Origin: Geobacter metallireducens GS-15 | Lineage (GTDB): Bacteria; Desulfobacterota; Desulfuromonadia; Geobacterales; Geobacteraceae | Assembly: GCF_000012925.1 (NCBI RefSeq) | Contig: NC_007517.1 | Coordinates: 3,870,001-3,902,000, forward strand | Direction: 5' to 3' | Length of the DNA stretch: 32,000 nt | Shown here: piece by piece, positions 6,179-32,000 of the stretch | Layout: each line of letters begins with the position of its first letter | How positions within the stretch are numbered: the stretch's first letter is position 1 | Notes under the pieces: model-generated | What the model was told of the DNA's origin: nothing | Database searches by the model: none | What the model saw: the letters and a program-made list of their open reading frames with translations, nothing else | Program-made: the position numbers and the translations under genes

Positions 6179-6179
6179 C

Positions 6180-7289: not shown

Positions 7290-7307
7290 GGCGATAGTCC
7301 TTTGCTC

Positions 7308-7326
7308 CCCCCTTTTTTAAAGGGGG
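7308..7326 (-). other. Intercistronic hairpin CCCCCTTT-TTT-AAAGGGGG between ATPase and permease genes
   Basis: Read directly from the 53-nt gap 7290-7342. An 8-bp stem; the function is unknown. Confidence 0.3.
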
Positions 7327-7342
7327 ACTTTGCAAGCATTGT

Positions 7343-11509: not shown

Positions 11510-11520
11510 GCCCGTCTCCG

Positions 11521-11736
11521 TTATGAAGGTTGAGTCCGCAAAATCCCCGAAGTCAGATATTCCTCGTAATTGCGCCAGAGCTTCATCCCTTCATTGACCA
11601 GGGAAAAGGAATGACCGTTCAGCGACCATTTGAGGGTCATTGCCAGCACCATTCCTATCAGCATCGAGGCGGCGGCCGCCGGATCAACAACATGCCCGAT
11701 GGCGCCAGTCTTTTTTCCGTGCTGAATGAGCGCCTC
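11521..11736 (-). pseudogene. Relic of a second TetR-family regulator gene (C-terminal 71 codons only)
   Basis: The minus-strand frame reads EALIQHGKKTGAIGHVVDPAAAASMLIGMVLAMTLKWSLNGHSFSLVNEGMKLWRNYEEYLTSGILRTQPS*. It aligns position for position with the C-terminus of the intact TetR at 11774-12376 (..IEQGQEAGALNREMDPNALATMFIGTVNFTALRWVMNKFSSKLSDEGERLWETF..). Immediately upstream the frame is closed by in-frame TAG TGA. There is no start codon and no helix-turn-helix part. Confidence 0.55.
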
Positions 11737-11747
11737 TCACTAGTGAG
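11736..11747. other. Perfect 12-bp palindrome CTCACTAGTGAG at the truncation point of the TetR relic
   Basis: Read directly. It supplies the TAG TGA double stop in the relic frame and lies 27 nt downstream of the intact tetR stop. Confidence 0.6.
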
Positions 11748-11773
11748 CGAGTTGAAAGATCTTGCCTGCAATC

Positions 11774-12376
11774 TCACACCTTGCAGACGAGCGACTTCAC
11801 AAAGGTTTCCCAGAGCCTTTCCCCCTCATCGCTCAGTTTCGAGGAAAACTTGTTCATTACCCACCGCAGGGCGGTAAAATTGACCGTGCCGATGAACATG
11901 GTGGCCAGAGCGTTCGGGTCCATTTCCCTGTTCAATGCCCCCGCTTCCTGTCCCTGTTCGATAACGGCGCTGATCCCCCTGAAATAGTGCATGAGATTTC
12001 CCCTGACTTTTTCCCGGAGGGTCTCGTTCAGCACCAGAACCTCCTCGGTGAAGATGGTGCGGGGAATGCCCACATGCTCTTCGATGTACGAGAGGTGCCG
12101 CTTGAAGATTTCCTCAAGTCTGCGCAGTGGTTCGGCGATATCCGCAGCGGCATCGAGAATCGATGCGAGATCGTTTCCGATCTTGTCGATCACCGACCCG
12201 AGGATCTCTTCCTTCCCCTTGAAGTGCCGGTAAAGGTTCCCTTCGGAGATGCCGCTCGCAGAGGCGATCTCCGCTGTTGTTGCGCCGCTTATTCCTTTCG
12301 TTCCGATAATCCTGAGGGCCGCCTCGGTAATCTGCTGTCGCCTTACTTCCGTGGGCTCTTTTTTTCGTGGTTTCAT
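11774..12376 (-). CDS. TetR/AcrR-family transcriptional regulator (CecR/YbiH-like position ahead of the exporter genes)
   Basis: N-terminal HTH region RRQQITEAALRIIGTKGISGATTAEIASASGISEGNLYRHFKGKEEIL. First gene of the minus-strand exporter block. Confidence 0.9.
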   Translation of the reverse strand: MKPRKKEPTEVRRQQITEAALRIIGTKGISGATTAEIASASGISEGNLYRHFKGKEEILGSVIDKIGNDLASILDAAADIAEPLRRLEEIFKRHLSYIEEHVGIPRTIFTEEVLVLNETLREKVRGNLMHYFRGISAVIEQGQEAGALNREMDPNALATMFIGTVNFTALRWVMNKFSSKLSDEGERLWETFVKSLVCKV

Positions 12377-14493: not shown

Positions 14494-14520
14494 GAGCTAC
14501 GCCGCCTCACGGAGTCACCC

Positions 14521-17505
14521 ATGAACCAGACGAACCTTGCCAAGGCACGGATACCGACGGCAACCTACCGCCTCCAGTTCAACGAGGGGTTCCGCTTCCA
14601 GGATGCGGAGCGGATCGTTCCCTACCTGAGCGCCCTGGGGGTGAGCGACGTCTATGCCTCCCCCTTCTTCAAGGCCCGGGCCGGGAGCATGCACGGCTAC
14701 GACATCGTCGACCACAACCGCCTGAACCCGGAACTCGGCACCCGGGAGGACTTCGACTCCTACTGCGACTGCCTCGGGCGCCACGGCATGGGGCAGGTAC
14801 TCGACTTCGTCCCGAACCACATGTGCGTCGAGGGGGGAGGCAACGAGCGGTGGCTCGACCTCATGGAAAACGGCCCCAGCTCGCCCCACGCGGCCTTTTT
14901 CGATGTGGACTGGTCGCCGGTCAAGAAGGAGTTGGCCGACAAGGTGCTCATTCCGGTCCTCGGCGACCAGTACGGAACGGCTCTGGAAAAGGGGGAACTG
15001 GTCCTCTCCTTCGAGGAAGGGGCATTCTTCATCAGCTACTACGAGCACCGGTTCCCCATCATCCCCAAGACCTACTGCCCCCTCCTCACCCACCGGCTCC
15101 AGGAACTGGAGCGGCTCCTCCCCCCTGATCACGAGGCGTACCAGGAGCTCCTGAGCATCGTGACCGCCATCTCTCACCTCCCCTTCTACACGGAGCGCGA
15201 TCCGGACCTGGTCCGGGAGCGCTATCGGGAAAAGGAGGTGATCAAGCTGCGGCTCGCGGCCCTCTGCCGTGATTACTGGCCCGTCAAGACGTTCATCGAT
15301 GAGAATGTCCGGATCTTCAATGGCGAGAAGGGGAATCCCCGCAGCTTCGACCTGCTGGACGGAATCCTGCGCCAGCAGGTCTACCGCCTCGCCCACTGGC
15401 GGACCGCCACCGACGAGATCAACTACCGCCGCTTTTTCGACATCAACGCCCTCGGCGCCATACGGATGGAGACCCCCCGGGTCTTCGAGGAGACCCATCG
15501 GCTGGTCCTGGGACTGGTGCGGGAGGGGAAGGTGACGGGGCTGCGGATCGACCACGCCGACGGGCTCTTTAACCCCACCGACTATTTCAGGCGGCTCCAG
15601 CGGAGCTGCTTCCTGGAGACGCGCCTGGCAGGCCTCGGGAACAGGAGCAGGGCCAGGGAAGAGGAAGAACCCGCGGGAACTCTCGCCGAGGGTATCCTTC
15701 AGCTCTACGACGAGATGCTGGAGGTTTCGCCCCGGATCAAGCCCTTCTACATCATCGGCGAAAAAATTCTCATGAAGAACGAGCGGCTCCCCGAGGACTG
15801 GCCGGTCCACGGCACCACGGGGTACGAATTCGCCAACGCCGCGACCGGCCTCCTGGTGGATACCCGCAACGGCCGCCGGTTCGACACCGTCTACGCGCGG
15901 TTCATCCACGAAAAGCCCGATTTCCCCGAGATCGCCTATCAGAAGAAGAAGCAGGTCATGAAGTTCTCCATGGGGGGCGAAATCAACACCCTGGGGCACT
16001 ACCTCAACAAGCTTTCGGAGACCAACCGCCACACCCGCGATTTCACCCTCGGGAGCCTCACCAAGGCACTGCTGGAGGTGATCGCCCATTTCCCCGTCTA
16101 CCGGACCTACACGGCAACCCGCAAGGTGGCTGACCGGGACCGCCAGTACATCGAATATGCCGTGGCCAGGGCCAAGCGGCGCAATCCGGCCATGAGCGAA
16201 TCGATCTTCACCTTCATCGAGGATGTGCTCCTGCTCCGCTTCCATGACAGCACCAGCGGGGATGAGCAGGAGCAGTGGCTCGACTTTGTCATGAGGGTCC
16301 AGCAGCTCACCGGACCGGTCATGGCCAAGGGGCTTGAGGATGCCGCCTTCTACGTCTACAACCGGCTCGTCGCCCTCAACGAGGTGGGAGGAACCCCGGA
16401 GCGCTTCGGCATCACCATCGAGGCCTTCCACGGCCAGAACATCGAGCGGGCCCGGAGCATCCCGACGGCGCTGCTTACCACCTCCACCCACGACACCAAG
16501 CGGAGCGAGGATGTCCGCGCCCGGATCTGCGTCCTCTCGGAGGACCCTGGAGCGTGGCACGACTGCCTCATGCGCTGGAGCCGGATGAACCGCCCCCACA
16601 AGGCGACCGTCCAGGGGATCAAGGTGCCGAGCCGCAACGAGGAGTGCCTCCTCTACCAGACCATCGTCGGCGCCTGGCCGGCAGAGGATTTCACGGGGAA
16701 TGAACGGGACGTTTTCGTGGGACGGATCAGGGAGTACATGCTCAAGGCCATGCGGGAGGCCAAGGTGAACACGAGCTGGATCAACCCGGATTCGGTCTAC
16801 GAAGAGGCGGCGCTCCACTTCGTTGACACCATCCTCCAGGACGTCACCGCCAACAACTTCCTTGCCGACCTGCGGCGGACCCTTCCCCCCCTCATCCGTT
16901 GCGGAATGCTGAATTCCCTCTCCCAGACCCTGCTCAAGGTGGCCTCACCCGGCGTCCCGGACTTCTACCAGGGGAACGAGCTCTGGGACTTCAGCCTCGT
17001 GGACCCGGACAACCGCCGGCCGGTGGATTTCGCGAAGCGGATCGCCATGCTCGATGGATTGCGGACGGCAGAGGAGGAGCGGGGCCCCCTTGCCTTGACG
17101 CGGGAGCTCCTCGAAACCATGGCCGACGGCCGGGTGAAGCTATTCCTCATCGGGAAGGCCCTCGCCCATCGCCGGGCCAACCGCTCCCTCTTCGAGCTCG
17201 GCACATACCTTCCGCTTGAGGTTCAGGGCGAACAGAGCGACAACGTCTGCGCCTTCGCGCGCTGCCACGACGGCGCGATGGCCATTGCCGTGGCTCCGCG
17301 CTTCTTCACCCGGCTGGGGGTTCCCCCCCTGGGTGCCGCGGTCTGGGAGGATACGCGGCTCGTCATCCCTGCCGCGGGGAGCGGCCGCGCCTGCCGCAAC
17401 ATCTTCACCGGCGAGCGGGTCGCGATGTCGCAGCAGGAGAGAGTGGCGACCCTCCCCCTTTCCGCCGTGCTCTCGGATTTTCCCGTGGCCCTGCTGGAAG
17501 CATGA
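14521..17505 (+). CDS. treY: Malto-oligosyltrehalose synthase
   Basis: N-terminal PTATYRLQFNEGFRFQDAERIVPYLSALGVSDVYASPFFKARAGSMHGYDIVDHNRLNPELG and a length near 990 aa are typical of TreY. Confidence 0.95.
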   Translation: MNQTNLAKARIPTATYRLQFNEGFRFQDAERIVPYLSALGVSDVYASPFFKARAGSMHGYDIVDHNRLNPELGTREDFDSYCDCLGRHGMGQVLDFVPNHMCVEGGGNERWLDLMENGPSSPHAAFFDVDWSPVKKELADKVLIPVLGDQYGTALEKGELVLSFEEGAFFISYYEHRFPIIPKTYCPLLTHRLQELERLLPPDHEAYQELLSIVTAISHLPFYTERDPDLVRERYREKEVIKLRLAALCRDYWPVKTFIDENVRIFNGEKGNPRSFDLLDGILRQQVYRLAHWRTATDEINYRRFFDINALGAIRMETPRVFEETHRLVLGLVREGKVTGLRIDHADGLFNPTDYFRRLQRSCFLETRLAGLGNRSRAREEEEPAGTLAEGILQLYDEMLEVSPRIKPFYIIGEKILMKNERLPEDWPVHGTTGYEFANAATGLLVDTRNGRRFDTVYARFIHEKPDFPEIAYQKKKQVMKFSMGGEINTLGHYLNKLSETNRHTRDFTLGSLTKALLEVIAHFPVYRTYTATRKVADRDRQYIEYAVARAKRRNPAMSESIFTFIEDVLLLRFHDSTSGDEQEQWLDFVMRVQQLTGPVMAKGLEDAAFYVYNRLVALNEVGGTPERFGITIEAFHGQNIERARSIPTALLTTSTHDTKRSEDVRARICVLSEDPGAWHDCLMRWSRMNRPHKATVQGIKVPSRNEECLLYQTIVGAWPAEDFTGNERDVFVGRIREYMLKAMREAKVNTSWINPDSVYEEAALHFVDTILQDVTANNFLADLRRTLPPLIRCGMLNSLSQTLLKVASPGVPDFYQGNELWDFSLVDPDNRRPVDFAKRIAMLDGLRTAEEERGPLALTRELLETMADGRVKLFLIGKALAHRRANRSLFELGTYLPLEVQGEQSDNVCAFARCHDGAMAIAVAPRFFTRLGVPPLGAAVWEDTRLVIPAAGSGRACRNIFTGERVAMSQQERVATLPLSAVLSDFPVALLEA

Positions 17506-17531
17506 AGGGATGAGTGACAAGGAGGTACCCC

Positions 17532-20870
<3,339 letters not shown>

Positions 20871-20937: not shown

Positions 20938-20949
20938 ATCTGCGTGCCC

Positions 20950-22791
20950 ATGAAACAGCAACCCCCTCGACGAGCTCCGCTCTGGCCCACGCCATTGGTC
21001 CTGATCCACGACCTCCACCTGCTTCGCCGGTTCGTTCGGCTACGGCGGAGTGTCCTGGCCCTCCTCTCCCGTCTGCGGATCAGCGAGAGCACCCTCATGG
21101 CAGTTCTGGCCGTGGGGATAGGGCTCCTGGCGGGACTCTGCAACTACGCCTTCCGTTCGTGCATCGATTTTTTCCGCTGGCTCATCATCGACAACGGTGC
21201 CCGACTGACCGGCTATTCCCCCGACACCTGGGACGCAAGCCGGCTCTGGGCGTTGGCCTTTCCCGTCATCGGCGCGACCATCATGCTCCCCCTCTTCATC
21301 TGGTACCGAGAGGACATGGCCTTCGGCTTCCCCCGTTTCCTTGAGAGGGTCAACCTGAGGGGGGGACGACTTCCCCTGCGGCTCATGTTCACCAGGGGGA
21401 TTTCGTCGGCCCTCACCATCGGCTCCGGCGGCTCGGCCGGCCAGGAAGGCCCCATCGCCCAGATCGGCGGCACGGCCGGCTCCGTGGTTGGCCATCTGCT
21501 CGGCATGCCGGAGGAACGGCTCAAGGTCCTGATCGGCTGCGGAGTTTCCGGCGGCGTGGCAGCCACCTTCAACGCCCCCCTCGCCGGCGTCTTTTTTGCC
21601 CACGAAATTGTCCTTCTCTCCAGCTTCGAGCTTTCCTCTTTCACGAGCATCGTCATCTCATCCGGCATGGCCACGGTCGTCTCCCGGGCCATGTACGGCG
21701 ACATCCCCGCCTTTGACGTACCGGCCTACCAGCTCGTCCACCCCCTGGAACTGGTCTTGTATGCCCTGTTAGGGATCGTGTGCGGCTGCGTCGCGGCCCT
21801 CTTCATCACTGGCTATGGAAAAACCAGGGAGTTTTTCGAGCAGCTCCGGGTGAATCCCCTCTGGAAGCCGCTGCTCGGGGGATTCCTCGCCGGCTGTGTC
21901 GGGGTCCTCCTCCCCCAGGTCCAGGGAAACGGGTACGGATTCATTGAAAAGGCCGTCGGCAACGACGTGGGATGGCTCCTTGTCACGCTCCTCATCGTCG
22001 GGAAGATGGCCGCCACCTGCGTCACGATCGGCTCGGGGCTGCCGGGGGGAACCTTCGCCCCGTCGCTTTTCATAGGGTCAGTGACCGGCATGAGTTTCGG
22101 TTTCCTGGCAAACCTCCTCTTTCCGCTCCATACCGCAACGCCGGGGGCCTATGCCCTGGTGGGAATGGGGGCGTTCCTCGCCTCGGTCACCCATGCGCCC
22201 ATGACCGGCATCTTCCTCCTGTTTGAGATGACCGGTTCCTACAAGGTTATCATTCCGATCATGCTTGCCTGCTCCATCGGCACTGCCGTGGCGCGCCATT
22301 TCCGCAAGGACGGCATCGACACCGCCGACCTTGCAGCCCGGGGGATCGACCTGAGAACGGGGCGCGAGGAGACGATACTGGAGAAGATCCAGGTGAGGGG
22401 AGTCATGATGCACGATGCGGAGGTTCTCCCCGAATCGATGACCATCCGTGAGTTTCTGGAACGCGCCCATACCCCTCGCCAGCACACCTTTCCCCTGGTA
22501 GACGCCGGCGGCGGCCTGGCCGGCGTCGTCACGATCCATGACTTCCTGGGCGTCGCCTTCGAACCGGACATCCTGGACAAGGTTCCCCTCGGGGAAATGG
22601 CCACCGACGACGTCATCACCGTGCAGGGCGACGAAAGCCTCGCCGCTGCGCTCAGGAAGATGGACCTCACCCCCATCGAAGAACTGCCGGTTGTCGATTC
22701 CGGCAATGGAAAGGTTATCGGGATTCTGTCGCGACGGGAAGTCATTGCCGCCTACAACCGGGCGATCGTGGAACGGACGTTCCGGGCGTGA
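20950..22791 (+). CDS. ClC-family chloride channel / Cl-/H+ antiporter with C-terminal CBS-domain pair
   Basis: ClC selectivity motifs GSGGSAGQEGP and GLPGGTFAPSLFIG, with multiple TM helices. The C-terminus has two CBS-like repeats (VMMHDAEVLPESMTIREFLE..., TDDVITVQGDESLAAALRKM...LPVVD). The start could also be GTG 20944. Confidence 0.9.
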   Translation: MKQQPPRRAPLWPTPLVLIHDLHLLRRFVRLRRSVLALLSRLRISESTLMAVLAVGIGLLAGLCNYAFRSCIDFFRWLIIDNGARLTGYSPDTWDASRLWALAFPVIGATIMLPLFIWYREDMAFGFPRFLERVNLRGGRLPLRLMFTRGISSALTIGSGGSAGQEGPIAQIGGTAGSVVGHLLGMPEERLKVLIGCGVSGGVAATFNAPLAGVFFAHEIVLLSSFELSSFTSIVISSGMATVVSRAMYGDIPAFDVPAYQLVHPLELVLYALLGIVCGCVAALFITGYGKTREFFEQLRVNPLWKPLLGGFLAGCVGVLLPQVQGNGYGFIEKAVGNDVGWLLVTLLIVGKMAATCVTIGSGLPGGTFAPSLFIGSVTGMSFGFLANLLFPLHTATPGAYALVGMGAFLASVTHAPMTGIFLLFEMTGSYKVIIPIMLACSIGTAVARHFRKDGIDTADLAARGIDLRTGREETILEKIQVRGVMMHDAEVLPESMTIREFLERAHTPRQHTFPLVDAGGGLAGVVTIHDFLGVAFEPDILDKVPLGEMATDDVITVQGDESLAAALRKMDLTPIEELPVVDSGNGKVIGILSRREVIAAYNRAIVERTFRA

Positions 22792-23261: not shown

Positions 23262-23282
23262 AGTGAGCATGAAGATAACAAT

Positions 23283-23315
23283 AAAAGCCCATGGACACAG
23301 CATCCATGGGCTTTT
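23283..23315. terminator. Bidirectional rho-independent terminator
   Basis: AAAAGCCCATGGA-CACAGCA-TCCATGGGCTTTT: a perfect 13-bp stem with a 7-nt loop and T-runs on both strands. It sits between the convergent + block and - block. Confidence 0.7.
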
Positions 23316-23505
23316 ATGCGTTCAATTACGCTGCAATATGGCGATTGGAGACGGACACTTCAAGCTCAATTACATAATGTTATCGGCCAGTTAACATTTG
23401 CAGTCCAAATTAACAAATCGTTGATGTTGATCGGCTTCAAAGGCAGACCCACCCCGAAATGCCCCGTGACAAACCGTGCAACCGTGCAATGTCTCCACAA
23501 ACCCG

Positions 23506-24069
23506 TCAGGTCTTCTGATACTCTCTGTTGCATCGTTCAATGAAATTGTTGATGTCTTCAACCGAAATCTCCGGCAGAACCAGAGCGCCATCGGCATCTT
23601 TCTCCACGTCGGTGATCCCGGGGTACTTCTGTTCCAGAGCGCTCAGTTCCTGGCTCTGGCGTTTCACCGTTCGCAGGAGACGCCGGTTATCCTCTTCGAG
23701 CACCAACCTGTCAAAAGCTGAGCGTAGCGCAAATCTCAACTCCAGGTCATCCCACGGCTTGGTGAAGAAGCGGTAGATTTCCCCCTGGTTCACCGCCCTC
23801 ATGGTGGCATCGATAGAGGCATGACCCGTGAGCATGATCCTGATCGTCTCGGGGTACCGCTCGCGGACAGCAGCAAGAAATTCGGCTCCCCCCATGCCCG
23901 GCATCTTCTCGTCGGACACCACCACACCGACCCGGTGCTCAGCGAAAAGCGCCAACCCCTCTTGACCGCTTCCGGCAGTCAGTATCTCGTAGGGCTCGTC
24001 CGCGAGGGCCCTCCGGAGCGAATTAATGACAAAGGGCTCGTCATCCACCAGCAGCAGGGTCTTTTTCAT
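23506..24069 (-). CDS. Response regulator: REC domain + coiled coil + small unassigned C-terminal domain
   Basis: The ATG at 24069 (MKKTLLLVDDEP...) has GGAGGAAA upstream and forms an ATGA overlap with the upstream stop. I prefer it over the track start at 24159. REC motifs LVDDE, VVVSDEKMPGMGG and FTKPWDDLEL. C-terminus: SALEQKYPGITDVEKDADGALVLPEISVEDINNFIERCNREYQKT. Confidence 0.9.
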   Translation of the reverse strand: MKKTLLLVDDEPFVINSLRRALADEPYEILTAGSGQEGLALFAEHRVGVVVSDEKMPGMGGAEFLAAVRERYPETIRIMLTGHASIDATMRAVNQGEIYRFFTKPWDDLELRFALRSAFDRLVLEEDNRRLLRTVKRQSQELSALEQKYPGITDVEKDADGALVLPEISVEDINNFIERCNREYQKT

Positions 24070-26537
24070 ATTTCCTCCATCAAAGTCAGGCTGTCCGTCC
24101 CCTTCTCCACCCCGCAGAAGGGGCAAACGGACCACTCCTCCTCCAGGGGCATCTTGCATCCCTTACAGCAGTTGCTCTTGAAAGTCCCGCAGAAGGGGCA
24201 GAAGAGGAACTTGGCGTCCACCATCTTCCCGCAGTGGGGGCAGGCCCGCTCGTAGACCATCTGGGGGCCAATCACCCGCAGGAGCTCCTCCAGGGTCGTG
24301 AGCCCCAGCCTTACCTTCTCAATCCCGTCCTCGATGAGCGTCTTCATGCCGTTGGCCCGCGCCATCTCGAAGAGCTCTGACTCCCGGTAGTGACTGCTGA
24401 TGAAGTGGCGGAAGTCATCGTTCATAACGAAGAGTTCGAACACCCCGATCCGCCCCCGGTAGCCGGTCTTGTTGCACTTGTCGCACCCCTTCCCCTGGTA
24501 GACGGTTCCATTCAGGTAGTCGGCGGGAACCCGCAGAAGCTCCAGGAGGTCCCGGTCGGGGGGGACGGCGGTCTTGCACGCCTCGCAGACCCGCCGCACG
24601 AGCCGCTGGGCCATGATCCCCTCCAGGGCCGAGGCGATGATGTACGGCTTGATCCCCATATCCATGAGGCGGGTGATGGAGGCGACGGCGCTGTTGGTGT
24701 GGAGGGTGGAGAGGACCATGTGGCCCGTGAGCGATGCTTTGAACGCCACGTCGGCGGTCTCCTGGTCGCGGATCTCCCCCACCATGATCACGTCCGGATC
24801 CTGGCGCAGCGTCGAGCGGAGCACTTGGGCAAAGGAGAGGCCGATCTTCTCCCGGACCGCCACCTGGTTCGCCTCCTCCAGGAAGTACTCCACCGGCTCC
24901 TCGATGGTCTCGAAGTTCTTGTGGCTGTCCATCATGGCAGACAGCAGCGAGTAGAGCATGGTGGTTTTGCCGCTCCCGGTGGGGCCTGTGGAGATGATGA
25001 CCCCCTGGGGCTTTTTGCTGAGAACGGTCAGCTTCCTCATGTCATCGGGAAGTACCCCCAGTTCGTCCAACCCCTTGATGGAAGCGCTCTTGTCGAGGAT
25101 CCGCATCACCACTTTCTCGCCGTTCATGGTGGGGAGGGTCGAGACCCGCATGTCTACGATCCTGGTTCCGGCCTTGACCGTGATCCGGCCGTCCTGGGGT
25201 TTACGCCGCTCGGAAATGTCCATCTTGGCGAGAATCTTCACCCGCGAAACCACCGCCGCGTGGATGTCGGAGGGGATCCTGATTTTACCGTGGAGAAGCC
25301 CGTCGATCCGGTAGCGGATCACGGTGCACTTGGTCTTGGGCTCGATGTGGATGTCGCTGGCCCGGTAGCGGACCGCCTCGGAGATGACAGCGTTGACGAC
25401 CCTGATGATGGGAGGGACTTTGGAGGAGCCGATCAACTCGTCGACGCTCACGTCGGCCTCTTCGTCCTCAATGACGATGTCAATCTCGTCCAGGGGCTCC
25501 AGTTCGCCGAATTCGTCGAGCTCCTCTCCGCCACCGGAAACGATGGCGGCGGCCCCCTCGCCGTAGATCCGAGCGAGCTGGGCCTGGATCTCGGAACTGG
25601 TGGAGAGGAGGGGCATCACCTTGAGGCCCAGGACCCGGGAGATATTGTCGATCTTGAAGATGTCGGAGGGGTCGGCCATGGCAATGGTGAGCCGGTTACC
25701 GTCGAGCCGCACCGGGATGAGGCGGTGCCTGTCGCACATGTCGCGGGGGAGACACCGCACCACCCCGGGGGTGATGTTCGCCTCCCGCAGGTCGATGAAC
25801 TCGACGCCCAGGTGGTTCTGGAGGGTCTTGAGAATCTTCGCCTCGGTGGAGACGCTGGTCCTCACCAGGGCGTCCACCAGGAGCTCTCCTGGTTTCTTCC
25901 CCTGGAGCACCGCGGCGAAGTCATCCTTGCGGATCACCCCCGCCTCGGTCAGGATGCTCCCGAGCATCGACTTGTCCTCATCGAAGAGCCCGGCGAAGTT
26001 CCTGATCTTCGTCTGCTGGGCCTTGGCGATCTCCTTGAGCTTCTTGTTCTCCTGGATGAGAGCATACTGTTGGAGCGCGAGACTCACTGTGAGGCGCAGG
26101 TCCTCGTCGTTCCACGGCTTGGTGATGAACTTGAAGACCGCCCCCTCCCTCACCGCCCCCATGATCGACTGGACGTCGGCGTAGCCGGTCAGCATGATCC
26201 GGATGGTATCGGGCCACTTCTGTTTGATCTCCTTGAGGAGCTGAGCGCCGGTCATCCCCGGCATCCGGTGGTCGGAGACGACCAAGTGCACCGAATGTTT
26301 TCCAAGGATCTCCAAAGCCTTTTCGGCCGATTCGGCGGTGAGGATCTCGTAGTTCTCGTCGATAAAAATACGCCGCAACGCCCTTAGGACCCCCTCCTCG
26401 TCGTCGACGAAGAGGAGGGTGAACCTGCTCTCGGTCTCGCTGTACTCCACCAGCGAGGCGTCGTCATCGGGCAAAAGGGGCGGCGGGGGCTCCTTGCCGG
26501 CAGCAACGGTTTTGAAGAGTTCCGAAAACTTTGCCAT
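24066..26537 (-). CDS. REC-domain-fused GspE/PilB-type secretion ATPase with C-terminal double zinc ribbon
   Basis: REC: LLFVDDEEGVLRAL...VVSDHRMPGMTG...FITKPWNDEDL. T2SSE_N-like: LGVEFIDLREANITPGVVRCLPRDMCDRHRLIPVRLDGNRLTIAMADPSD. ATPase: Walker A GPTGSGKTT, Walker B DPDVIMVGEIRD, His box LTGHMVLSTLHTN, tetra-Cys CEACK...CDKCNKTGYRGRIGVFE. Extra tail: CPHCGKMVDAKFLFCPFCG...CKGCKMPLEEEWSVCPFCG. Confidence 0.9.
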   Translation of the reverse strand: MAKFSELFKTVAAGKEPPPPLLPDDDASLVEYSETESRFTLLFVDDEEGVLRALRRIFIDENYEILTAESAEKALEILGKHSVHLVVSDHRMPGMTGAQLLKEIKQKWPDTIRIMLTGYADVQSIMGAVREGAVFKFITKPWNDEDLRLTVSLALQQYALIQENKKLKEIAKAQQTKIRNFAGLFDEDKSMLGSILTEAGVIRKDDFAAVLQGKKPGELLVDALVRTSVSTEAKILKTLQNHLGVEFIDLREANITPGVVRCLPRDMCDRHRLIPVRLDGNRLTIAMADPSDIFKIDNISRVLGLKVMPLLSTSSEIQAQLARIYGEGAAAIVSGGGEELDEFGELEPLDEIDIVIEDEEADVSVDELIGSSKVPPIIRVVNAVISEAVRYRASDIHIEPKTKCTVIRYRIDGLLHGKIRIPSDIHAAVVSRVKILAKMDISERRKPQDGRITVKAGTRIVDMRVSTLPTMNGEKVVMRILDKSASIKGLDELGVLPDDMRKLTVLSKKPQGVIISTGPTGSGKTTMLYSLLSAMMDSHKNFETIEEPVEYFLEEANQVAVREKIGLSFAQVLRSTLRQDPDVIMVGEIRDQETADVAFKASLTGHMVLSTLHTNSAVASITRLMDMGIKPYIIASALEGIMAQRLVRRVCEACKTAVPPDRDLLELLRVPADYLNGTVYQGKGCDKCNKTGYRGRIGVFELFVMNDDFRHFISSHYRESELFEMARANGMKTLIEDGIEKVRLGLTTLEELLRVIGPQMVYERACPHCGKMVDAKFLFCPFCGTFKSNCCKGCKMPLEEEWSVCPFCGVEKGTDSLTLMEEI

Positions 26538-26538
26538 G

Positions 26539-27858
26539 CTATCCCCCTGTCACCGGCAGTCTCACCACGAAAGAGGCACCTCCTTCGGGCGTGCTTCCAG
26601 CCTCCACCGTGCCGCCGTGGGCGGTTACTACCTCGTGGGCCACCGCAAGCCCCATCCCCATCCCCTGGCCCACCGGCTTGGTGGTGAAGAAGGGTTCGAA
26701 GACGCGGTCCAGGAGCTCCGGCAGGATGCCGGGGCCGTTGTCGGTGATGGTTATGGCGATGGCATCCCCCTCCAGGGCGGTGCGGATGGTGAGCCTGAGC
26801 CCCTCGCTCCGGGCCTGACAGGCGTTCATGATGATGTTGAGGAACACCTGGCAGAGTTCCCCCGCCCGGCAGCTGAGTCCCGGAATGGAGCCGTACTCCC
26901 TGGCGATCTCGGTCCCCGCCGGGATCTCGTGGACCAGCACGGCGAGGGTTCGGTCGATCTCGGCGTTCAGGTCCGCCACCGTTTCCCCTAGGTCGTCGAT
27001 GTGCGAGAACCCCTTCAGGTCGGCCACAATCTTTTTCACCCGCTCCGCCCCGCCGAGACTCTGGGATACAAGTTCGTCCACATCGGCAAGTACCATGTCG
27101 AGCTTCAACTGGCGCCACTTCTCGGCAAAGCGCTCCCCGCCCGCTCCTCCCCCCGCCACGGGGAAGAGATCCCGGGCGAACTGAAGCATCTCCACGAAGC
27201 GCCCTGCATACTTCTGCATCGTCCGGATGTTGCTCGTGACGAACCCCATGGGATTGTTGATCTCGTGGGCGATGCCAGCCGCCAGCTGCCCCACCGAGGC
27301 GAGCTTCTCCTGTTGCAGGAGTCGGGCCAGGGCCTTTTTCAGCTCCGCGGTCCGCTCCTCCACCTTGATCTCCAGGCTCTCCGCCAGCTCCCGATAGCGG
27401 GCCTCGGAGGCAGTAAGCTTCCGGTTAGTTTCCAGAAGCTCCTCGTAGGACTGGTTCACCACCGTCGTGTGGATCTCGGTGGTGAGCATCCTCTTCAGGT
27501 TCGAGCCCACCAGGAGGTTCACCGCAGCCGTGAGCATGACGGCAATCCCCTTCAGGAACTCCTCCCTTCCCCTCTCTCCCTTCACCAGAATCGACCCCAC
27601 CGGCTCCCCCTCCAGGAGGATGGCGGGCCCTCGGAGCCCCAGGGAGGCAGCTTCCCCTCCGTCGGTCGGCGCGGCATGGGACCAGAGAGTGGTTCCCTCG
27701 GCATCGGCGAGGGCCGCGGCACGGGCGCCGGCACGTACGGCACCCCTGAGGAGCGGGATCACCTCTGTCTCGGTGATGACGTCCCTGAGGAGCCGCTCTT
27801 CGCCGACCACGTAGTTGAGGCGCTTGGCCGATACGTTTGATGTATGTTGGTTTTTCAT
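26539..27858 (-). CDS. Soluble sensor histidine kinase with unassigned N-terminal domain of about 130 aa
   Basis: H-box EKLASVGQLAAGIAHEINNPMGF and HATPase motifs NIIMNACQA, DNGPGI, GQGMGMGLAVAHEVVTAHGG. No TM segment. ATG 27858 (AAGAGA upstream) is preferred; GTG 27888 is possible. Confidence 0.85.
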   Translation of the reverse strand: MKNQHTSNVSAKRLNYVVGEERLLRDVITETEVIPLLRGAVRAGARAAALADAEGTTLWSHAAPTDGGEAASLGLRGPAILLEGEPVGSILVKGERGREEFLKGIAVMLTAAVNLLVGSNLKRMLTTEIHTTVVNQSYEELLETNRKLTASEARYRELAESLEIKVEERTAELKKALARLLQQEKLASVGQLAAGIAHEINNPMGFVTSNIRTMQKYAGRFVEMLQFARDLFPVAGGGAGGERFAEKWRQLKLDMVLADVDELVSQSLGGAERVKKIVADLKGFSHIDDLGETVADLNAEIDRTLAVLVHEIPAGTEIAREYGSIPGLSCRAGELCQVFLNIIMNACQARSEGLRLTIRTALEGDAIAITITDNGPGILPELLDRVFEPFFTTKPVGQGMGMGLAVAHEVVTAHGGTVEAGSTPEGGASFVVRLPVTGG

Positions 27859-27936
27859 GATAGGTCTCTTTGAACATCCACTGGGCACACTCTATAGCGC
27901 CTCGCATCGCATGAGCAGAGCGCCATGAAGGCGCCC

Positions 27937-28614
27937 CTACACGAATCCAGCTATGCCCTGCGTCGCTTCAACCGATGTCATCTTTCGCACGAAGCTCTCG
28001 CTGCCGAGTCCGTGCTCATCCAGGAGCCGGTACTTCCGGTCGATGGCAGCATAGGTAAGCTCCAGAAGCCTAGTGAAGGTCTCCACCACACCCCACCCCT
28101 CCAGGGCCGATGCGCCCGTCACCTGGATCCCCGTGGGTTCCCAGACCCGGGCGATCTCTTCCTCGCTCACGATGTTTGTCAGGTCCCTCTTGTTGAACTG
28201 GATCACGAGGGGAACCTTTTCGATATCGATTCCCACGAAGGCAAGGTTTTTCTCCAGGTTGTCGAAACTCTCGAAATTGTTGGCCGCCTCGGAGAGTTGG
28301 GAATCAGCCACGAAGACCACTCCGTCTGCCCGTTGAAGAACCGCCTTGCGGGTTGCATCGTGGCGCACCTGCCCCGGCACTGTGTAGACCTTCACCTTGA
28401 TCTTCAAGCCGCTTGGCGCCACGAGGAAAAAGGGGAGGAGATCGAAGAATATGGTCCGGTCGTCAGTCGTGTCGAGGACCATCAGCTCTCCACGCCCCTC
28501 CTGGGTGATCAGGTCGTGGAGTTTCAGTAGATTTGTAGTCTTTCCCGACATGGCTGGTCCGTAGTAGACCAGCTTCAAGACCATCTTTTTTTGTGCTTCG
28601 TCGTATTCAATCAT
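27937..28614 (-). CDS. MglA-family Ras-like small GTPase with C-terminal extension
   Basis: It aligns along its length with M. xanthus MglA as I recall it: KLVYYGPAMSGKTTNL (P-loop), DRTIFFDLLP (switch I), VYTVPGQV (the MglA-specific TxxGQ in place of DxxGQ), GVVFVADSQ, IQFNKRDL (NKxD). 225 aa versus about 195 for MglA. Confidence 0.85.
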   Translation of the reverse strand: MIEYDEAQKKMVLKLVYYGPAMSGKTTNLLKLHDLITQEGRGELMVLDTTDDRTIFFDLLPFFLVAPSGLKIKVKVYTVPGQVRHDATRKAVLQRADGVVFVADSQLSEAANNFESFDNLEKNLAFVGIDIEKVPLVIQFNKRDLTNIVSEEEIARVWEPTGIQVTGASALEGWGVVETFTRLLELTYAAIDRKYRLLDEHGLGSESFVRKMTSVEATQGIAGFV

Positions 28615-28623
28615 TACCCACGC

Positions 28624-29934
28624 TCATACTTCCACGAAGACGCCGTGAGGGGGAGGGTCGAGGCGGTAGTAGCGGCGGATCGCCTCGATCTTGACCACAT
28701 CGAGGCGTACCCCCCGGTTGAGGAGAAGGAGGCCGGTGCCACTGTATATGTCGCGGGAGAGCACTTGGCCGACAAAAAGCTCGGCGATTCCCACCTCGAC
28801 CTCGCCGAGTTTCCTGGTATCCGTTTCCTTCACATAGTAGACGTGCTTGGCGAACTTGCGCAGGGACTCATAGAGGGACGGATCGAGCTTCTTCCCCAAC
28901 TCGGCGGCGACGCTCCGCAGGCCGTAGTCGATGGCAGTGTAACCGTGCAGCTTCTGTATGGCCCTATCGAGAAAATCGGCTATGGCGATGATGCGGGAGC
29001 CGAGGGGAATAGCCTCTCCCCGCAGGCCGTCGGGGTAACCGCTGCCGTCGTAATGCTCGTGGTGATGGCGGATGAGGACCCCGGCAGGGGTGAGCTCCTC
29101 AATGGCGTCAATGGCCGTCTGCCCCCTCACGGCATGGAGCATGTACTCTCTCAGCTCTCCCGGAGTCATCTCTGACAGGTCCTTCTTCAGGATCGCATCA
29201 GCTATCCCCAACTCCCCGATGTCGTGGAGCAGGGCCGCGTTGTGCACCGTCTCCACCTCCCCGGCGGAAACCCCCATTGCCTGGGCAATGTTCATGGCGA
29301 GGGTCGCCACGGTTTCGGCGTGACGCTTTTTCCCCCCCAGTTCTATAAGCCGGGAAAACGCCGTGACGGTGTCCTTGAAATTGCTCCGGAGCCGTTCGTT
29401 GAGCTCTTTCAGGTTTTCGTGTTTCTTCCGGATCTCGGTAGTCTGCTCGAGGACCCGCACCTTCAGGTTCTCATTCCACTCCTTGAGCTCCTCGTTCTGC
29501 TTGTTGACGATCTCCGTGAGGCGCCGGTTCTCCTGAACGAGCCGGTACTGGTTGACCGCGTCGCGGATGATCTGGACCAGTTCCTCGTCGTTCCACGGCT
29601 TGGTGATGTACCGATAGGCGCCGCCGCGATTGATGGCATCCACAGTTGCCGAAATGTCTGCGTATCCGGTCAGCATGATCCGGAGTGTCTCGGGGAACAT
29701 CTCCCGGACCTGGGCCAGAAACTGGACCCCGGTGATCTCGGGCATCCGCTGATCGGACACGATAACCCCCACGTCCTCCGTCTCCATGAGAATCCGCAGT
29801 CCTTCCCTGGCCGACGGAGCGGTGATGACCTCGAACTCCTCATCCATGAAAACCCTGCTCAGGGACTTGAGCATGTTTTCCTCGTCATCGACGAAAAGCA
29901 CCCGTACCGGTGCAGTTTCCGGCAGTTCATACAT
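28624..29934 (-). CDS. RpfG-type response regulator: REC + HD-GYP c-di-GMP phosphodiesterase + C-terminal extension
   Basis: ATG 29934 (MYELPE...) has GAGGGAG upstream, and I prefer it over the track start at 30063. REC: VLFVDDEENMLKSL...VIVSDQRMPEITG...YITKPWNDEEL. HD-GYP: LLHDIGE and HHHEHYDGSGYPDGLRGEAIPLGSRIIAIAD. Confidence 0.9.
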   Translation of the reverse strand: MYELPETAPVRVLFVDDEENMLKSLSRVFMDEEFEVITAPSAREGLRILMETEDVGVIVSDQRMPEITGVQFLAQVREMFPETLRIMLTGYADISATVDAINRGGAYRYITKPWNDEELVQIIRDAVNQYRLVQENRRLTEIVNKQNEELKEWNENLKVRVLEQTTEIRKKHENLKELNERLRSNFKDTVTAFSRLIELGGKKRHAETVATLAMNIAQAMGVSAGEVETVHNAALLHDIGELGIADAILKKDLSEMTPGELREYMLHAVRGQTAIDAIEELTPAGVLIRHHHEHYDGSGYPDGLRGEAIPLGSRIIAIADFLDRAIQKLHGYTAIDYGLRSVAAELGKKLDPSLYESLRKFAKHVYYVKETDTRKLGEVEVGIAELFVGQVLSRDIYSGTGLLLLNRGVRLDVVKIEAIRRYYRLDPPPHGVFVEV

Positions 29935-30067
29935 GAACGTGTACTCCCTCTTTACTATCGTTCGGCAATAATTCCCTTTTCTTGAATGCGGAAATATCCG
30001 CGGAGAGCCGCTCCAAGGAGTTGAGAATATGCTCTTCATCATCCACGAACAGAATTTTGGCACTCAT
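29927..30067 (-). pseudogene. Stub of a receiver-domain gene (46-codon ORF, only the first 21 codons or so are REC-like)
   Basis: The ATG at 30067 forms an ATGA overlap with the hybrid-kinase stop. The ORF reads MSAKILFVDDEEHILNSLERL, then unrelated SADISAFKKRELLPNDSKEGVHVHV*. The REC-like part parallels VRVLFVDDEENMLKSLSRVF of the next gene. The DNA after the stub is visibly AT-richer. Confidence 0.45.
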
Positions 30068-32000
30068 AGGGGTTCCTCCCCATTGAAGACAAGAACGATT
30101 CCCTCCTGCTCCCCCTCCTTGAGATACACCCCCAGACTCCGGACTCCGGCGACACCGGCCAATAGCCGGCACATGGAGGTCTTTTCCCGGGCGAGCTCGT
30201 CAATGAACGCACAGATCTCCGGCGACAGGGCTTCGGCTGCGCCTCTACCGACGACTGCGTATTCATCGAGCCCCAGAAGCCGCGCCGCACTCCGGTTGCA
30301 TTGGACCACCGTCCCCTCCGTGTCCATCCCCAGGACCCCCACCGGCAAAGCGTCGAGGATGTTCTGGGCGGCACTGAGGGCCCGGTTGCGGAACAGGACT
30401 TCCTCGGTCCGTTCGGCAACGATCGCCTCCAGGTTCTCGTTCATAAGGACGAGCTCCTCGTTGGACCGGCTCAACTCATCAAGGAGCTTGGCGTTATGCT
30501 TTTGGAGCTGGTACTTCTCCAGGGCGTTTATCACTGTAACCCTGAGTTCGTCGTCGGTCCACGGCTTGGGGACGAACTTGTAGATCTGCCCCTCGTTGAT
30601 GGCGGCGACAATGGCGGCCGTGTCGGCATACCCCGACAGGACGATGCGGACCGTGTCGGGCCACTGGGTACAGACCTTACGGAGAAAATCGACCCCGTTC
30701 ATGACCGGCATCCGGTAGTCAGAGATAACGATCTGCACCGGGGACTCCCGCTCGAGGATTTCCAGCCCCTCGGCCGCCGACGAAGCGGTAAGGATGTCGT
30801 AGTTGTCGTCGAGGAACATCCGTCCCAGCGACCGGAGCACGTTCATCTCATCATCCACACAGAGAATGCGTACCTGTTCGTCCATATCAGTTCCTCTCCC
30901 GGACAGGGACCGCACGGTGAAGGTGGTCCCCCGGCCTTGCTCGCTCTCCACGGTAATCTCGCCGCCGTGCTTCTTCACGATGTCGTAGCTGATGGAAAGC
31001 CCGAGCCCCGTCCCCTTTCCCACCTCCTTGGTGGTGAAGAAGGGCTCGAAGATCCGGGCTCTGATCTCCTCGGGAATCCCGCAGCCAGTGTCGGAAATGG
31101 CAATGAAGGCGTCCTCCCCCTCACGCCAGGTCCGGACGGTAATCTCTCCCTGGCTCTCGATGGCATGGCCGGCATTCACGAGGAGATTCATGAATACCTG
31201 GTTGAGCTGCTGGGGGTTGCACCGCAGGGGAGGGACGTCGCCGTACTCCTTCTTGAGAGTCGCTTTGTACTTCAACTCGTTCCAGACGATGTTGATGGTG
31301 CTGTCGAGGCACTCGCGCAGATCCACCACCTTCACCTCTGCCTCATCCACCCGGGAGAATCCCTTGAGATCCTGCACGATCTTCTTCACCCGCTCCGCCC
31401 CGTCGAGGGATTCGGTGATGAGGCCGTCGATGTCTCCCATGATGTACTCTATCTTCAGCGTCTTTTTTGCTTGGGCGAGGCGCTGCGACACCGCTTCCCC
31501 TTCCAGTTCGGCGATGGTCTCATCCTGGGCGGCGATGAATTCCCGAATCCGTCCCAGATACTTACCGAGGGTTCCGAGGTTGCTCATGATGAAACCGATG
31601 GGATTGTTGATCTCATGGGCCACGCCGGCGGCCAGCTGCCCGATGGAGGCCATTTTTTCCCGCTGGAGCATCTGTCCCTGGGCCTCCTTCAACTCGCCGT
31701 AGGCCTTCTCCAGGGCTTCGCCGACCTTTTTCAGCTCCGTGGTATCGTGAAGTGTGACGACGCTCCCACTCATCCCGCTTTCATTTTTTTGTCTGAAGGG
31801 GTAGATGGCGCAGAAGAACCAGCGTTCCGTCAACCTGTGGAAGAGCTCTCCTCCCTCTTGGGTGAACCGGATCCTCTCCATCTCGGGCGAGAGAACGATC
31901 GAACGCCACTCTCTCCCAAGGACATCCTGGTAGGGAAGACCGGCAAGCTCGACGACGGCCCGGTTGCAGCGCCGGATGTGTCCTTCGTTGTCCGTCAGGA
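30064..32000 (-). CDS. Hybrid sensor kinase PAS-HisKA-HATPase-REC-PAS (5' end outside window)
   Basis: The frame stays open upstream of the track start to the window edge (..LTDNEGHIRRCNRAVVELAGLPYQDVLGREWRSIVLSPEMERIRF.., PAS-like). H-box EKMASIGQLAAGVAHEINNPIGF; HATPase DTGCGI and GKGTGLGLSISYDIVKKHGG. REC: ILCVDDEMNVLRSL...VISDYRMPVMNG...FVPKPWTDDEL. A PAS-like segment of about 100 aa ends the protein. Confidence 0.9.
   Translation of the reverse strand, partial: LTDNEGHIRRCNRAVVELAGLPYQDVLGREWRSIVLSPEMERIRFTQEGGELFHRLTERWFFCAIYPFRQKNESGMSGSVVTLHDTTELKKVGEALEKAYGELKEAQGQMLQREKMASIGQLAAGVAHEINNPIGFIMSNLGTLGKYLGRIREFIAAQDETIAELEGEAVSQRLAQAKKTLKIEYIMGDIDGLITESLDGAERVKKIVQDLKGFSRVDEAEVKVVDLRECLDSTINIVWNELKYKATLKKEYGDVPPLRCNPQQLNQVFMNLLVNAGHAIESQGEITVRTWREGEDAFIAISDTGCGIPEEIRARIFEPFFTTKEVGKGTGLGLSISYDIVKKHGGEITVESEQGRGTTFTVRSLSGRGTDMDEQVRILCVDDEMNVLRSLGRMFLDDNYDILTASSAAEGLEILERESPVQIVISDYRMPVMNGVDFLRKVCTQWPDTVRIVLSGYADTAAIVAAINEGQIYKFVPKPWTDDELRVTVINALEKYQLQKHNAKLLDELSRSNEELVLMNENLEAIVAERTEEVLFRNRALSAAQNILDALPVGVLGMDTEGTVVQCNRSAARLLGLDEYAVVGRGAAEALSPEICAFIDELAREKTSMCRLLAGVAGVRSLGVYLKEGEQEGIVLVFNGEEPL

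Follow-up and report, generated by a model that had tools for sequence, protein, structure and literature searches.

Assembly ATPases of the GspE/PilB superfamily dock through their N1 domain onto GspL/PilM-type platform proteins, and a tetracysteine zinc site in the C-terminal domain (CTD) marks the PilB/GspE branch and is absent from PilT. Known control of these motors, in type IV pilus and type II secretion systems, runs through cyclic di-GMP (c-di-GMP), as with MshE, PilF and FimX-PilZ, or through receivers and small GTPases that act in trans. In X. campestris, DrdR binds PilB and PilT and stimulates ATP hydrolysis by both (PMC13507683), and in Synechocystis the pilus motor is reported to interact with PATAN-REC regulators (bioRxiv 10.1101/2021.06.11.447907). 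Among small GTPases, MglA is reported to activate the type IV pilus via SgmX (PMC7668184), and SofG positions PilB and PilT (Bulyha et al. 2013, as cited in PMC4316618). Here we describe a stretch of 32,000 nucleotides from Geobacter metallireducens GS-15 (assembly GCF_000012925.1, contig NC_007517.1, forward-strand positions 3,870,001 to 3,902,000; hereafter the window, numbered from its first nucleotide), in which the reverse-strand gene 24066-26537 encodes a PilB-type ATPase with a receiver domain (REC) at its N terminus and, very probably, a double zinc ribbon (DZR) at its C terminus.

The architecture itself is no new sequence observation, being already annotated and catalogued. The G. 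daltonii orthologue stands in GenBank (ACM21847) as 'response receiver type II secretion system ATPase and double zinc ribbon protein, PulE and DZR domain-containing', and a 'REC - MshEN - T2SSE' protein (Gmet_3473) is listed, with no reference given, in Supplementary Table 4 of Wang et al. (2016, PMC5013675); the window ATPase, compared with Gmet_3473 by architecture, has the same order of these three domains. The main addition to the earlier observation is a conserved operon around the ATPase gene. The likeliest reading of the sequence data, though at about even odds, is that the ATPase is a phosphorylation-gated PilB-type motor that acts on a platform encoded elsewhere and whose ancestral c-di-GMP site has decayed. 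The interest of the locus lies in this conserved MglA-kinase-REC-PilB-DZR operon together with an apparent swap from c-di-GMP to phosphorylation: the family hard-wires a receiver onto the motor and has kinase and MglA-type GTPase genes beside it, which makes it a compact and genetically tractable case for studying the putative gating of a PilB-type hexamer by phosphorylation. Its hosts include Geobacter, among them a genome labelled G. sulfurreducens, where pilus or pseudopilus assembly matters for extracellular electron transfer.

Domain architecture and relatives of the ATPase

The initial annotation had described a gene for a phospho-receiver, a complete GspE/PilB core and a zinc-ribbon tail. 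Its coordinates proved exact, as the open reading frame (ORF) call returned 823 codons from an ATG start at 24066-26537 on the reverse strand, and the domain reading was borne out by hidden Markov models (HMMs), by matches in the PDB and by invariance across the family. The domains follow in the order REC, helix, degenerate MshEN_N, N1, T2SSE core and double zinc ribbon. The core, made up of N2 and the CTD (residues 375-754, 24276-25415), matched Pfam T2SSE at E 2.6e-131 over profile positions 6-370 of 370, and every motif named in the initial annotation (Walker A and B, His box, tetra-Cys site and the four CxxC pairs of the tail) could be located in the translation. The Asp box spans residues 443-451, Walker A (GPTGSGKTT) 518-526, Walker B (DPDVIMVGEIRD) 580-591 and the His box 604-615, the catalytic glutamate is E546, and the zinc site of the CTD consists of C651/C654/C685/C688. 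All of these are invariant in an alignment of 66 sequences, on which all calls of invariance below are based. Both hallmarks of the GspE/PilB superfamily, the PF00437 core motifs and the CTD tetracysteine site, are thus present. We read the protein as a probable PilB-lineage hexameric assembly ATPase turned response regulator, and predict that it is catalytically competent.

The receiver (residues 42-150, 26088-26414) is of the RpfG/HD-GYP type, with a Pfam Response_reg match at E 8.6e-25 and a match of 192 bits to the REC part of NF053512. It carries all residues that define a REC domain, namely the acidic pair D45/D46, the phospho-acceptor D89, T117 and K140, each of them invariant. It is preceded by a leader (residues 1-41, 26415-26537) that begins with the motif M-x-K-Y-S-E-L-F-K and continues into a variable Pro/acidic stretch; M1, L7 and F8 are invariant, Y4 is at least 90% conserved, and the confidence of the AlphaFold2 (AF2) model is low here. 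The peptide itself occupies residues 1-9 (26511-26537, reverse strand), and could be a docking or membrane-association motif. A long connecting helix (residues 151-190, 25968-26087; helix 144-185 in the AF2 model) joins the alpha-5 helix of the receiver to the N terminus of the ATPase. Its predicted local distance difference test (pLDDT) values lie between 57 and 74, Q156, Q157, E163, N164, L167 and Q174 are invariant, and the QEN..L segment also trails the other receivers of the operon.

Behind the helix and the MshEN_N-like segment (residues 191-242) discussed below lies the N1 domain (residues 243-329, 25551-25811; Pfam PF05157, E 7.7e-23), in which A288, D289, P290, S291 and D292 of the AMADPSD motif are invariant. 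The current Pfam name of this family, 'MshEN' (formerly T2SSE_N), refers to the N1/T2SSE_N part and not to the c-di-GMP-binding subdomain. N1 is followed by an acidic, flexible linker (residues 330-374, 25416-25550; pLDDT below 50, with disorder in the AF2 model spanning 327-379). The otherwise disordered linker between N1 and N2 contains an acidic motif, EPLDEIDIV (residues 346-354, 25476-25502, reverse strand), of which D350, E351, I352, D353 and I354 are invariant. At the C terminus, residues 764-809 (24111-24248) form the pattern CxxC-x10-CPxCG-x7-CxxC-x10-CPxCG, with the cysteine pairs C766/C769, C780/C783, C791/C794 and C805/C808. Pfam DZR (PF12773) matched residues 766-809 at E 1.7e-4 and 22.1 bits, below its gathering score of 27.3. 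Because the eight cysteines and the CPxCG signatures are invariant, as are P781, W802, P806 and G809, and because relatives reach 29-38 bits, above the gathering score, this sub-threshold match is very probably a true double zinc ribbon. The AF2 model has a mean pLDDT of 68.5 and a predicted template modelling score (pTM) of 0.42; the receiver (pLDDT 83-90), N1 and most of the CTD are confident. An antisense ORF of 665 amino acids (24390-26387, forward strand) gave no Pfam match and was rejected as a gene.

Over residues 189-756 the protein lines up with the whole of PilB from G. metallireducens (5TSG/6OLJ, E ~1e-134) and with PilB of G. sulfurreducens (5ZFR), and the best match is PilF of T. 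thermophilus (E 9e-144). A Foldseek search with the AF2 model likewise returned PilF (5oiu) and PilB (5tsh/5zfr) at the top, with E ~1e-37, and added nothing on the interface between receiver and motor. The ATPase shares with these proteins and with M. xanthus PilB the collinear MshEN_N-like segment, N1, the acidic linker, N2 and the tetra-Cys CTD, and all of Walker A and B, the Asp box, the His box and the catalytic glutamate are present. It differs from PilB in that its core is only 42-46% identical to Geobacter PilB, whose RLG...Q motifs have decayed in it, in that it adds the N-terminal receiver and helix as well as the C-terminal double zinc ribbon, and in that its gene lies apart from pilC, pilT and pilMNOPQ. 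The PilB equivalog model TIGR02538 aligned residues 192-755 at 569.6 bits, below the cutoff of 675.65, and the GspE model TIGR02533 aligned from residue 261 onwards at 555.2 bits, below the cutoff of 630.25; because both cutoffs are missed, we treat the ATPase as a separate subfamily.

One might still suppose an ordinary PilB or GspE with extra domains, or a fusion created by assembly or annotation, since PilB and GspE are the top HMM matches and PilF and PilB the nearest structures. The sub-cutoff scores and the modest identity of the core speak against the former, and the ATPase was never seen inside a pil or gsp cluster; besides, the complete genome labelled G. sulfurreducens has the ATPase in addition to the known PilB of that species. 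An artefact is hard to reconcile with the occurrence of the same full-length architecture in more than 120 clusters and in 80 genome loci, from isolates and metagenome-assembled genomes (MAGs) of two phyla. The conservation data effectively refute both forms of this explanation, which we regard as highly improbable.

The fusion is real and conserved, not a product of chance, as judged from its relatives. The initial annotation had called for a survey of REC-GspE-zinc ribbon fusions and of what they neighbour, and this survey revealed a common fusion family and a conserved operon. The full-length homologues (more than 120 clusters of 790-828 amino acids, 65-96% identical) have an identical precomputed domain list and come from Geobacter, Geotalea, Geomonas, other Geobacteraceae and Nitrospirota/Thermodesulfovibrionia. 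The orthologue in AP017912.1, a genome labelled G. sulfurreducens, is 83.6% identical and keeps the zinc ribbons, and that of G. daltonii is 67% identical. In a scan of a single genome for each species, a peptide pattern matched 280 stretches, of which 225 encode a relative, and the best 80 loci were retrieved; synteny counts given below have as denominators those of the 80 species-level loci with enough flanking sequence.

How often such decorations recur was surveyed with HMMER over 1.84 billion cluster representatives, phmmer searches with segments and Pfam spot checks. Among the nearest 150 clusters (built at 50% identity), 18 have an N-terminal receiver, with or without DZR, and about 40 have a C-terminal one, including MshEN-T2SSE-DZR-REC proteins (Pfam-checked in P0298, P0301 and P0313). 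The DZR tail is present and a receiver absent in about 40 others, 16 of which are plain N1-core-DZR proteins (Pfam-checked in P0306 and P0325), and 14 clusters are tandem T2SSE-T2SSE proteins. Since both decorations are common in this survey, and in both orders, the DZR tail and the fusion to a receiver are each recurrent in a broad, unstudied PilB-like clade. The permuted or partial relatives (MshEN-T2SSE-DZR, MshEN-T2SSE-DZR-REC, MshEN-T2SSE-REC and REC-MshEN-T2SSE) are 36-49% identical to the window protein over the ATPase and likewise have the DZR directly after the CTD, with Pfam DZR above the gathering score in several, whereas their receiver is C-terminal or absent and some of them keep the MshEN consensus motifs. 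The tandem-core proteins (P0287-P0309) are about 1000 amino acids long, with an MshEN-T2SSE-T2SSE order in P0287 according to Pfam. Relatives of 1400-1530 amino acids combine MshEN-T2SSE-DZR with a long C-terminal extension, and in two of them a receiver follows the DZR (Pfam: P0313). A homologue search with the C-terminal 124 amino acids only gave 30 short contig-end fragments of the family and was left out of the DZR survey.

The degenerate MshEN_N segment and c-di-GMP

The segment between the connecting helix and N1 (residues 191-242, 25812-25967) was identified by alignment to the motifs of PilB (5tsg) and PilF as a degenerate, MshEN_N-like four-helix segment. In the initial annotation two tandem segments at this place had been likened to MshEN-type half-motifs and called degenerate at key positions, and HMM and structure analyses of the N-terminal region, which it had proposed as a check, indicate homology to MshEN_N and N1 and a predicted four-helix fold: phmmer matched MshE (5HTL) at E 6.5e-10, helices are predicted at residues 192-198, 204-213, 220-226 and 232-243 with pLDDT 82-87 in the AF2 model, and MshEN_C/N1 follows at 243-329. 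HMMER alignment to G. metallireducens PilB and PilF places half-motif I at M191-K214 and half-motif II at L219-H242, with a spacer of four residues. The first of the previously proposed half-motifs therefore stands as drawn, whereas the second, given as P216-Q240, was three residues out of register. The degeneracy itself was correctly recognized, as a methionine (Met191) takes the place of the leading arginine and the central glycine of motif II is lost (Ser228 in the HMMER register).

Compared with the consensus RLGxxLLxxGLIxxxxLxxxLxxQ, the arginine at position 1 is replaced by Met191 in motif I and Leu219 in motif II, and the glutamine at position 24 by Lys214 and His242, respectively. The glycines at positions 3 and 10 are kept in motif I (G193 and G200) and are replaced in motif II by Val221 and Ser228, the equivalents of Gly40 and Gly47 of MshE. 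Across 125 aligned family sequences, from which all family-wide statements on these positions derive, arginine is not among the five commonest residues at position 1, where M/V/Q/A/I prevail in motif I and F/L/S/Y/T in motif II; at position 24, motif I mostly has K/R and motif II H/N, and the spacer uniformly measures four residues, against five in MshE. The receptor motif of MshEN-type c-di-GMP binding is accordingly missing from the window protein, which has MLG...K and LLV...S...H around a four-residue spacer. The region is homologous to that of V. cholerae MshE (5HTL; PMC5013675), with two helical hairpin motifs of about 24 residues followed by N1 and T2SSE, but both motif arginines and both glutamines are replaced, the spacer is shorter by one residue, and valine and serine stand at the Gly40 and Gly47 positions. 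The segment is also the least conserved structured part of the ATPase.

The relaxed motif of Wang et al. had no match in the window protein, in 120 close homologues or in 18 more distant N-REC representatives, while at least one match was found in 34 of the 87 nearest relatives without a receiver and in 9 of the 40 with a C-terminal receiver; the motif is strict, as one of the two motifs of Geobacter PilB fails it, and the counts are not phylogenetically independent. Loss of the MshEN consensus in the N-REC forms, set against its frequent retention in relatives without a receiver, suggests that the regulatory input was exchanged during evolution. In MshE, the G11L and G40I variants show poor, if any, c-di-GMP binding, and XpsE, in which G40L is one of several changes, fails to bind c-di-GMP (Wang et al. 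2016, PMC5013675). The caution of the initial annotation, which had held second-messenger input to be conceivable and no more, was justified, and the decay of the motifs now leans towards the absence of canonical binding. Judging from these residues, canonical c-di-GMP binding is unlikely for this ATPase and doubtful for the family as a whole.

A dual-input motor, in which the four-helix segment still binds c-di-GMP or another nucleotide and integrates phosphorylation with a second messenger level set by the HD-GYP protein, has to be weighed at this point. The confidently predicted four-helix fold is in line with it, the hydrophobic and glycine skeleton of both half-motifs is largely retained across the family, and about half of the members keep glycine at the G40-equivalent position (Gly 51%, Ser 38%, Val 4%). 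Moreover, according to Wang et al., perfect conservation of the motif is not needed for binding, and substitution of Arg9 or Gln32 in MshE changes the affinity for c-di-GMP by no more than about fivefold (PMC5013675). Because single losses of Arg9 or Gln32 are mild, the skeleton is kept and half of the family retains this glycine, binding by some members is left as a possibility. A REC-HD-GYP gene is, besides, conserved upstream (54 of 68 loci). Against the dual-input motor stand valine and serine at the two glycine positions, of which the first is the one altered in the binding-deficient MshE G40I and XpsE; the four-residue spacer in all members; the family-wide loss of both arginines and both glutamines; the low conservation of the segment; and the absence of the relaxed motif from all 138 N-REC proteins. 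We therefore consider this dual input improbable, and less likely than the filament-independent signalling role weighed further below.

The conserved operon and its MglA-type GTPase

The ATPase gene is part of an operon of genes on one strand, separated by short gaps or overlapping, in the order sensor kinase-REC-PAS, REC remnant, REC-HD-GYP, MglA-type GTPase, kinase, ATPase and solo REC. The stop codon of the kinase gene lies one nucleotide before the ATG of the ATPase gene, and the ATG of the solo receiver gene overlaps the ATPase stop codon (ATGA), which suggests translational coupling. The solo receiver gene is directly downstream in 71 of 78 loci and the kinase gene directly upstream in 67 of 74; an MglA-like gene lies upstream in 63 of 70, and a REC-HD-GYP gene with the frequency mentioned above. 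Pfam-annotated neighbourhoods were compared in seven genomes: G. daltonii, a Nitrospirae MAG, Geomonas terrae, two (near-)complete assemblies, a Nitrospiraceae MAG and AP017912.1 (deposited as G. sulfurreducens). The same module was present in all seven, between flanks unrelated to one another. The G+C content of the operon (0.58-0.63) is the same as in the rest of the window, and recent horizontal acquisition has no compositional support.

Directly upstream of the ATPase gene, 26539-27888 encodes a dedicated histidine kinase of 449 amino acids with a HisKA-like H-box (AHEINNP) and HATPase_c (Pfam, NCBIfam); hydropathy revealed no clear membrane segment. Downstream, the solo receiver (23506-24069) comprises 187 amino acids from M31 of the listed ORF (Pfam REC, E 4e-22). 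About 190 nucleotides past its gene lies a terminator-like hairpin (23281-23317) with a perfect 17-bp stem and a T-rich tail, which likely marks the end of the operon and, standing between the convergent solo receiver and ClC channel genes, is probably a shared terminator. The REC-HD-GYP response regulator (28624-29934; probable start M44 of the listed ORF) has intact HD and GYP motifs and scored 477.5 bits against NF053512 (cutoff 400). HD-GYP had been placed two genes upstream of the ATPase; it is the third gene upstream, with two genes in between. Its above-cutoff 'NosR family' label in NCBIfam was not taken to indicate nitric oxide sensing, because neither NosP nor H-NOX was found in the window or among the operon Pfam families of the seven genomes. 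Upstream sensors in these seven are mostly dCache/PAS/GAF kinases.

In an ORF of 46 codons (29930-30067), a receiver-like beginning (MSAKILFVDDEEHILNSLERL) is cut off by a stop codon. The ORF resembles the 5' remnant of a REC or REC-HD-GYP gene that has otherwise been deleted, and two REC-HD-GYP genes are often found at this position in relatives. The first gene of the operon encodes a sensor kinase with fused REC-PAS (HisKA-HATPase_c-REC-PAS by Pfam; 30064-31881), and its frame runs upstream off the window end at 32000; the upstream sequence of this frame, at the window end, reads as a PAS-like domain. Relatives have a sensor kinase of 790-1283 amino acids and, in most of them, a separate REC or REC-PAS protein (244-273 amino acids), where the window has a single ORF. 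The four receivers of the operon are paralogues of 44-52% identity, and the two kinase cores are 44% identical. 'T2SS_HK' matches of the kinases in NCBIfam (256.6 and 342.3 bits, cutoff 450) stayed below cutoff and were not used to argue for a link to type II secretion.

The MglA-type small GTPase (27937-28614, 225 amino acids) has the P-loop GPAMSGKTT, DDRT, TVPGQ and NKRD motifs and a C-terminal extension of about 35 amino acids. Its residues 8-188 matched M. xanthus MglA (6h17) in phmmer at E 1e-44, and the four motifs are conserved in 69 orthologues, so that the features that define the MglA family (P-loop, intrinsic Arg finger and Thr in switch I, TVPGQ in switch II, NKxD) are all present; by sequence it is a true MglA homologue. 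It is also the best conserved neighbour of the ATPase, with 61-90% identity across genomes. No adjacent MglB (Robl_LC7) gene was found in the operon of any examined genome. A 'Group II MglA2' protein of G. metallireducens, 225 amino acids long and without MglB, was reported by Fremgen et al. (PMC3000849), and the operon GTPase matches it in size and in the absence of MglB. Orphan MglA homologues were set aside by Wuichet and Sogaard-Andersen, and the passages of that study's main text considered here do not mention an ATPase-operon neighbourhood (PMC4316618).

Two variants of the module were noticed. In one locus (L087, 7974-10004) genes for a hemerythrin and a dCache-PAS protein stand between kinase and ATPase, and in the locus of the Nitrospiraceae MAG (L088, 1049-2145) an unrelated pair of Robl_LC7 (MglB-like) and Arf-like genes lies 8 kb upstream, beside a transposase. 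Outside the module, the window holds only efflux, trehalose-synthesis and ClC genes. Three large, consecutive genes of the alpha-amylase family (12655-20870, forward strand) look like a trehalose synthesis cluster, with TreZ/TreY-like proteins and a TreS fused to a maltokinase N-cap, and are followed by a ClC channel gene with CBS domains (20944-22791). A reverse-strand efflux operon (5057-12376) encodes a TetR regulator, an OEP, an HlyD-type adaptor, two ABC ATPases and two ABC-2 permeases, and a DUF6448 protein is encoded at 3811-4473.

Phosphorylation control, platform and known systems

Direct control of the motor by phosphorylation, as implied by the initial annotation, is a reasonable inference, because the receiver is intact and the kinase gene is, by its spacing, translationally coupled. 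In the mechanism that we propose, the four paralogous receivers would be phosphorylated by the adjacent kinase, to which the upstream sensor kinase may contribute. Phosphorylation of D89 would then shift the arrangement of the connecting helix and the N domains, and this rearrangement may switch hexamer assembly, ATPase activity or the docking of N1 on a PilM/PilC- or GspL/GspF-type platform encoded elsewhere, so that assembly of a filament, be it a type IV pilus or a pseudopilus, would be set on or off by a signal. In parallel, the HD-GYP branch would lower c-di-GMP, the MglA-like GTPase could govern polar placement or the choice of partner, much as PilB/PilT of Myxococcus are controlled by MglA and SofG, and the solo receiver may serve as a phosphate sink or connector. 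The receiver would have taken over the regulatory input because the ancestral c-di-GMP site in MshEN_N had decayed.

The initial annotation had also described the ATPase as lacking platform partners, and locally this holds. Genes for PilC/GspF (T2SSF), pilins, PilMNOPQ or secretins were found neither in the window nor in the seven other genomes, there within a range of about 10 kb around the ATPase gene (for AP017912.1, around the adjacent MglA-like gene), and gsp genes were likewise absent from both. A canonical type II secretion or type IV pilus locus nearby, which would have identified a normal partner, was thus not seen in this range. The finding fits the main rival explanation, namely a platform-independent signalling ATPase that makes no filament and forms, with the GTPase, kinase and solo receiver, a cytoplasmic switch, for example in polarity, exopolysaccharide production or c-di-GMP turnover; its signalling state would depend on ATP hydrolysis and phosphorylation, as has been proposed for M. 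xanthus PilB in the regulation of exopolysaccharide. In that organism PilB is reported to be a signalling intermediary for exopolysaccharide (PMC5544727), and a canonical PilB is already encoded in the pil cluster of Geobacter (PMC8557921). That the module moves as a unit between unrelated flanks, and that the ATPase scores under both the PilB and the GspE cutoffs, are likewise in keeping with such a role. It is less easily squared with the strong conservation of N1, including the AMADPSD motif, and with the invariance of all motor residues (Arg fingers, His box and zinc site), as expected of an enzyme that does mechanical work; moreover, cases are known in which the gene of an assembly ATPase lies apart from those of its machine. 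We regard this signalling role as possible but rather unlikely.

Several points weigh against a phosphorylation-gated motor with a decayed c-di-GMP site. Because no platform, pilin or secretin gene lies near the ATPase gene in eight genomes, the partner machine is purely inferred. The sub-cutoff equivalog scores set the ATPase apart from both PilB and GspE as a subfamily of its own, and because the AF2 model is only moderate, with low inter-domain confidence, contacts between receiver and motor cannot be read from it. The retained hydrophobic skeleton, the glycine kept at the G40-equivalent position by half of the family and the mild effects of Arg9 and Gln32 substitutions in MshE argue that some members may still bind c-di-GMP. 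Finally, no work on fusions of this kind, or on the candidate Geobacter locus tags, came up in full-text literature searches.

More speculatively, the MglA2-type GTPase, the kinase, the REC-PilB-DZR protein and the solo receiver may constitute an undescribed, self-contained switch in Thermodesulfovibrionia and the metal-reducing Geobacter. Its core would be a second PilB-type motor, gated by phosphorylation and positioned by the GTPase, that either shares a pilus or pseudopilus platform with the canonical PilB, competing with or replacing it there, or acts without a filament; in both cases a single operon would link two-component signalling to polarity control by a GTPase and to c-di-GMP breakdown. 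We put this forward tentatively, as an idea that is at present rather doubtful. If true, a self-contained switch with a second PilB-type motor could help to explain why PilA filaments are still made after deletion of pilB in G. sulfurreducens (PMC8557921). GSU2609 and GSU1783 are listed there as PilB homologues and are candidate orthologues of the ATPase; we found no paper that characterizes them. A guess that placed the locus of G. sulfurreducens PCA at GSU2093-2098, by its flanking purC/mreB, was wrong, as this is a CO-dehydrogenase region.

Compared with known systems, the logic of a phosphorylatable receiver that modulates the activity or localisation of a pilus extension ATPase is shared with DrdR, the PATAN-REC regulators and PilG/PilH of P. 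aeruginosa. Those regulators act in trans, whereas here receiver and ATPase form one polypeptide, next to which a dedicated kinase is encoded, in an operon without a chemotaxis-like (CheA-type) system. The GTPase resembles SofG, Bdellovibrio MglA and 'MglA2' in that it likewise has no adjacent MglB and, as with MglA and SofG in Myxococcus, there is a genetic tie between a motif-complete GTPase of the MglA family, a PilB-type ATPase and receiver proteins. In Myxococcus and Bdellovibrio, however, GTPase and PilB are encoded apart and linked via SgmX, RomR or bactofilins, while in the family described here the genes for GTPase and PilB-type ATPase stand in one operon with two-component genes.

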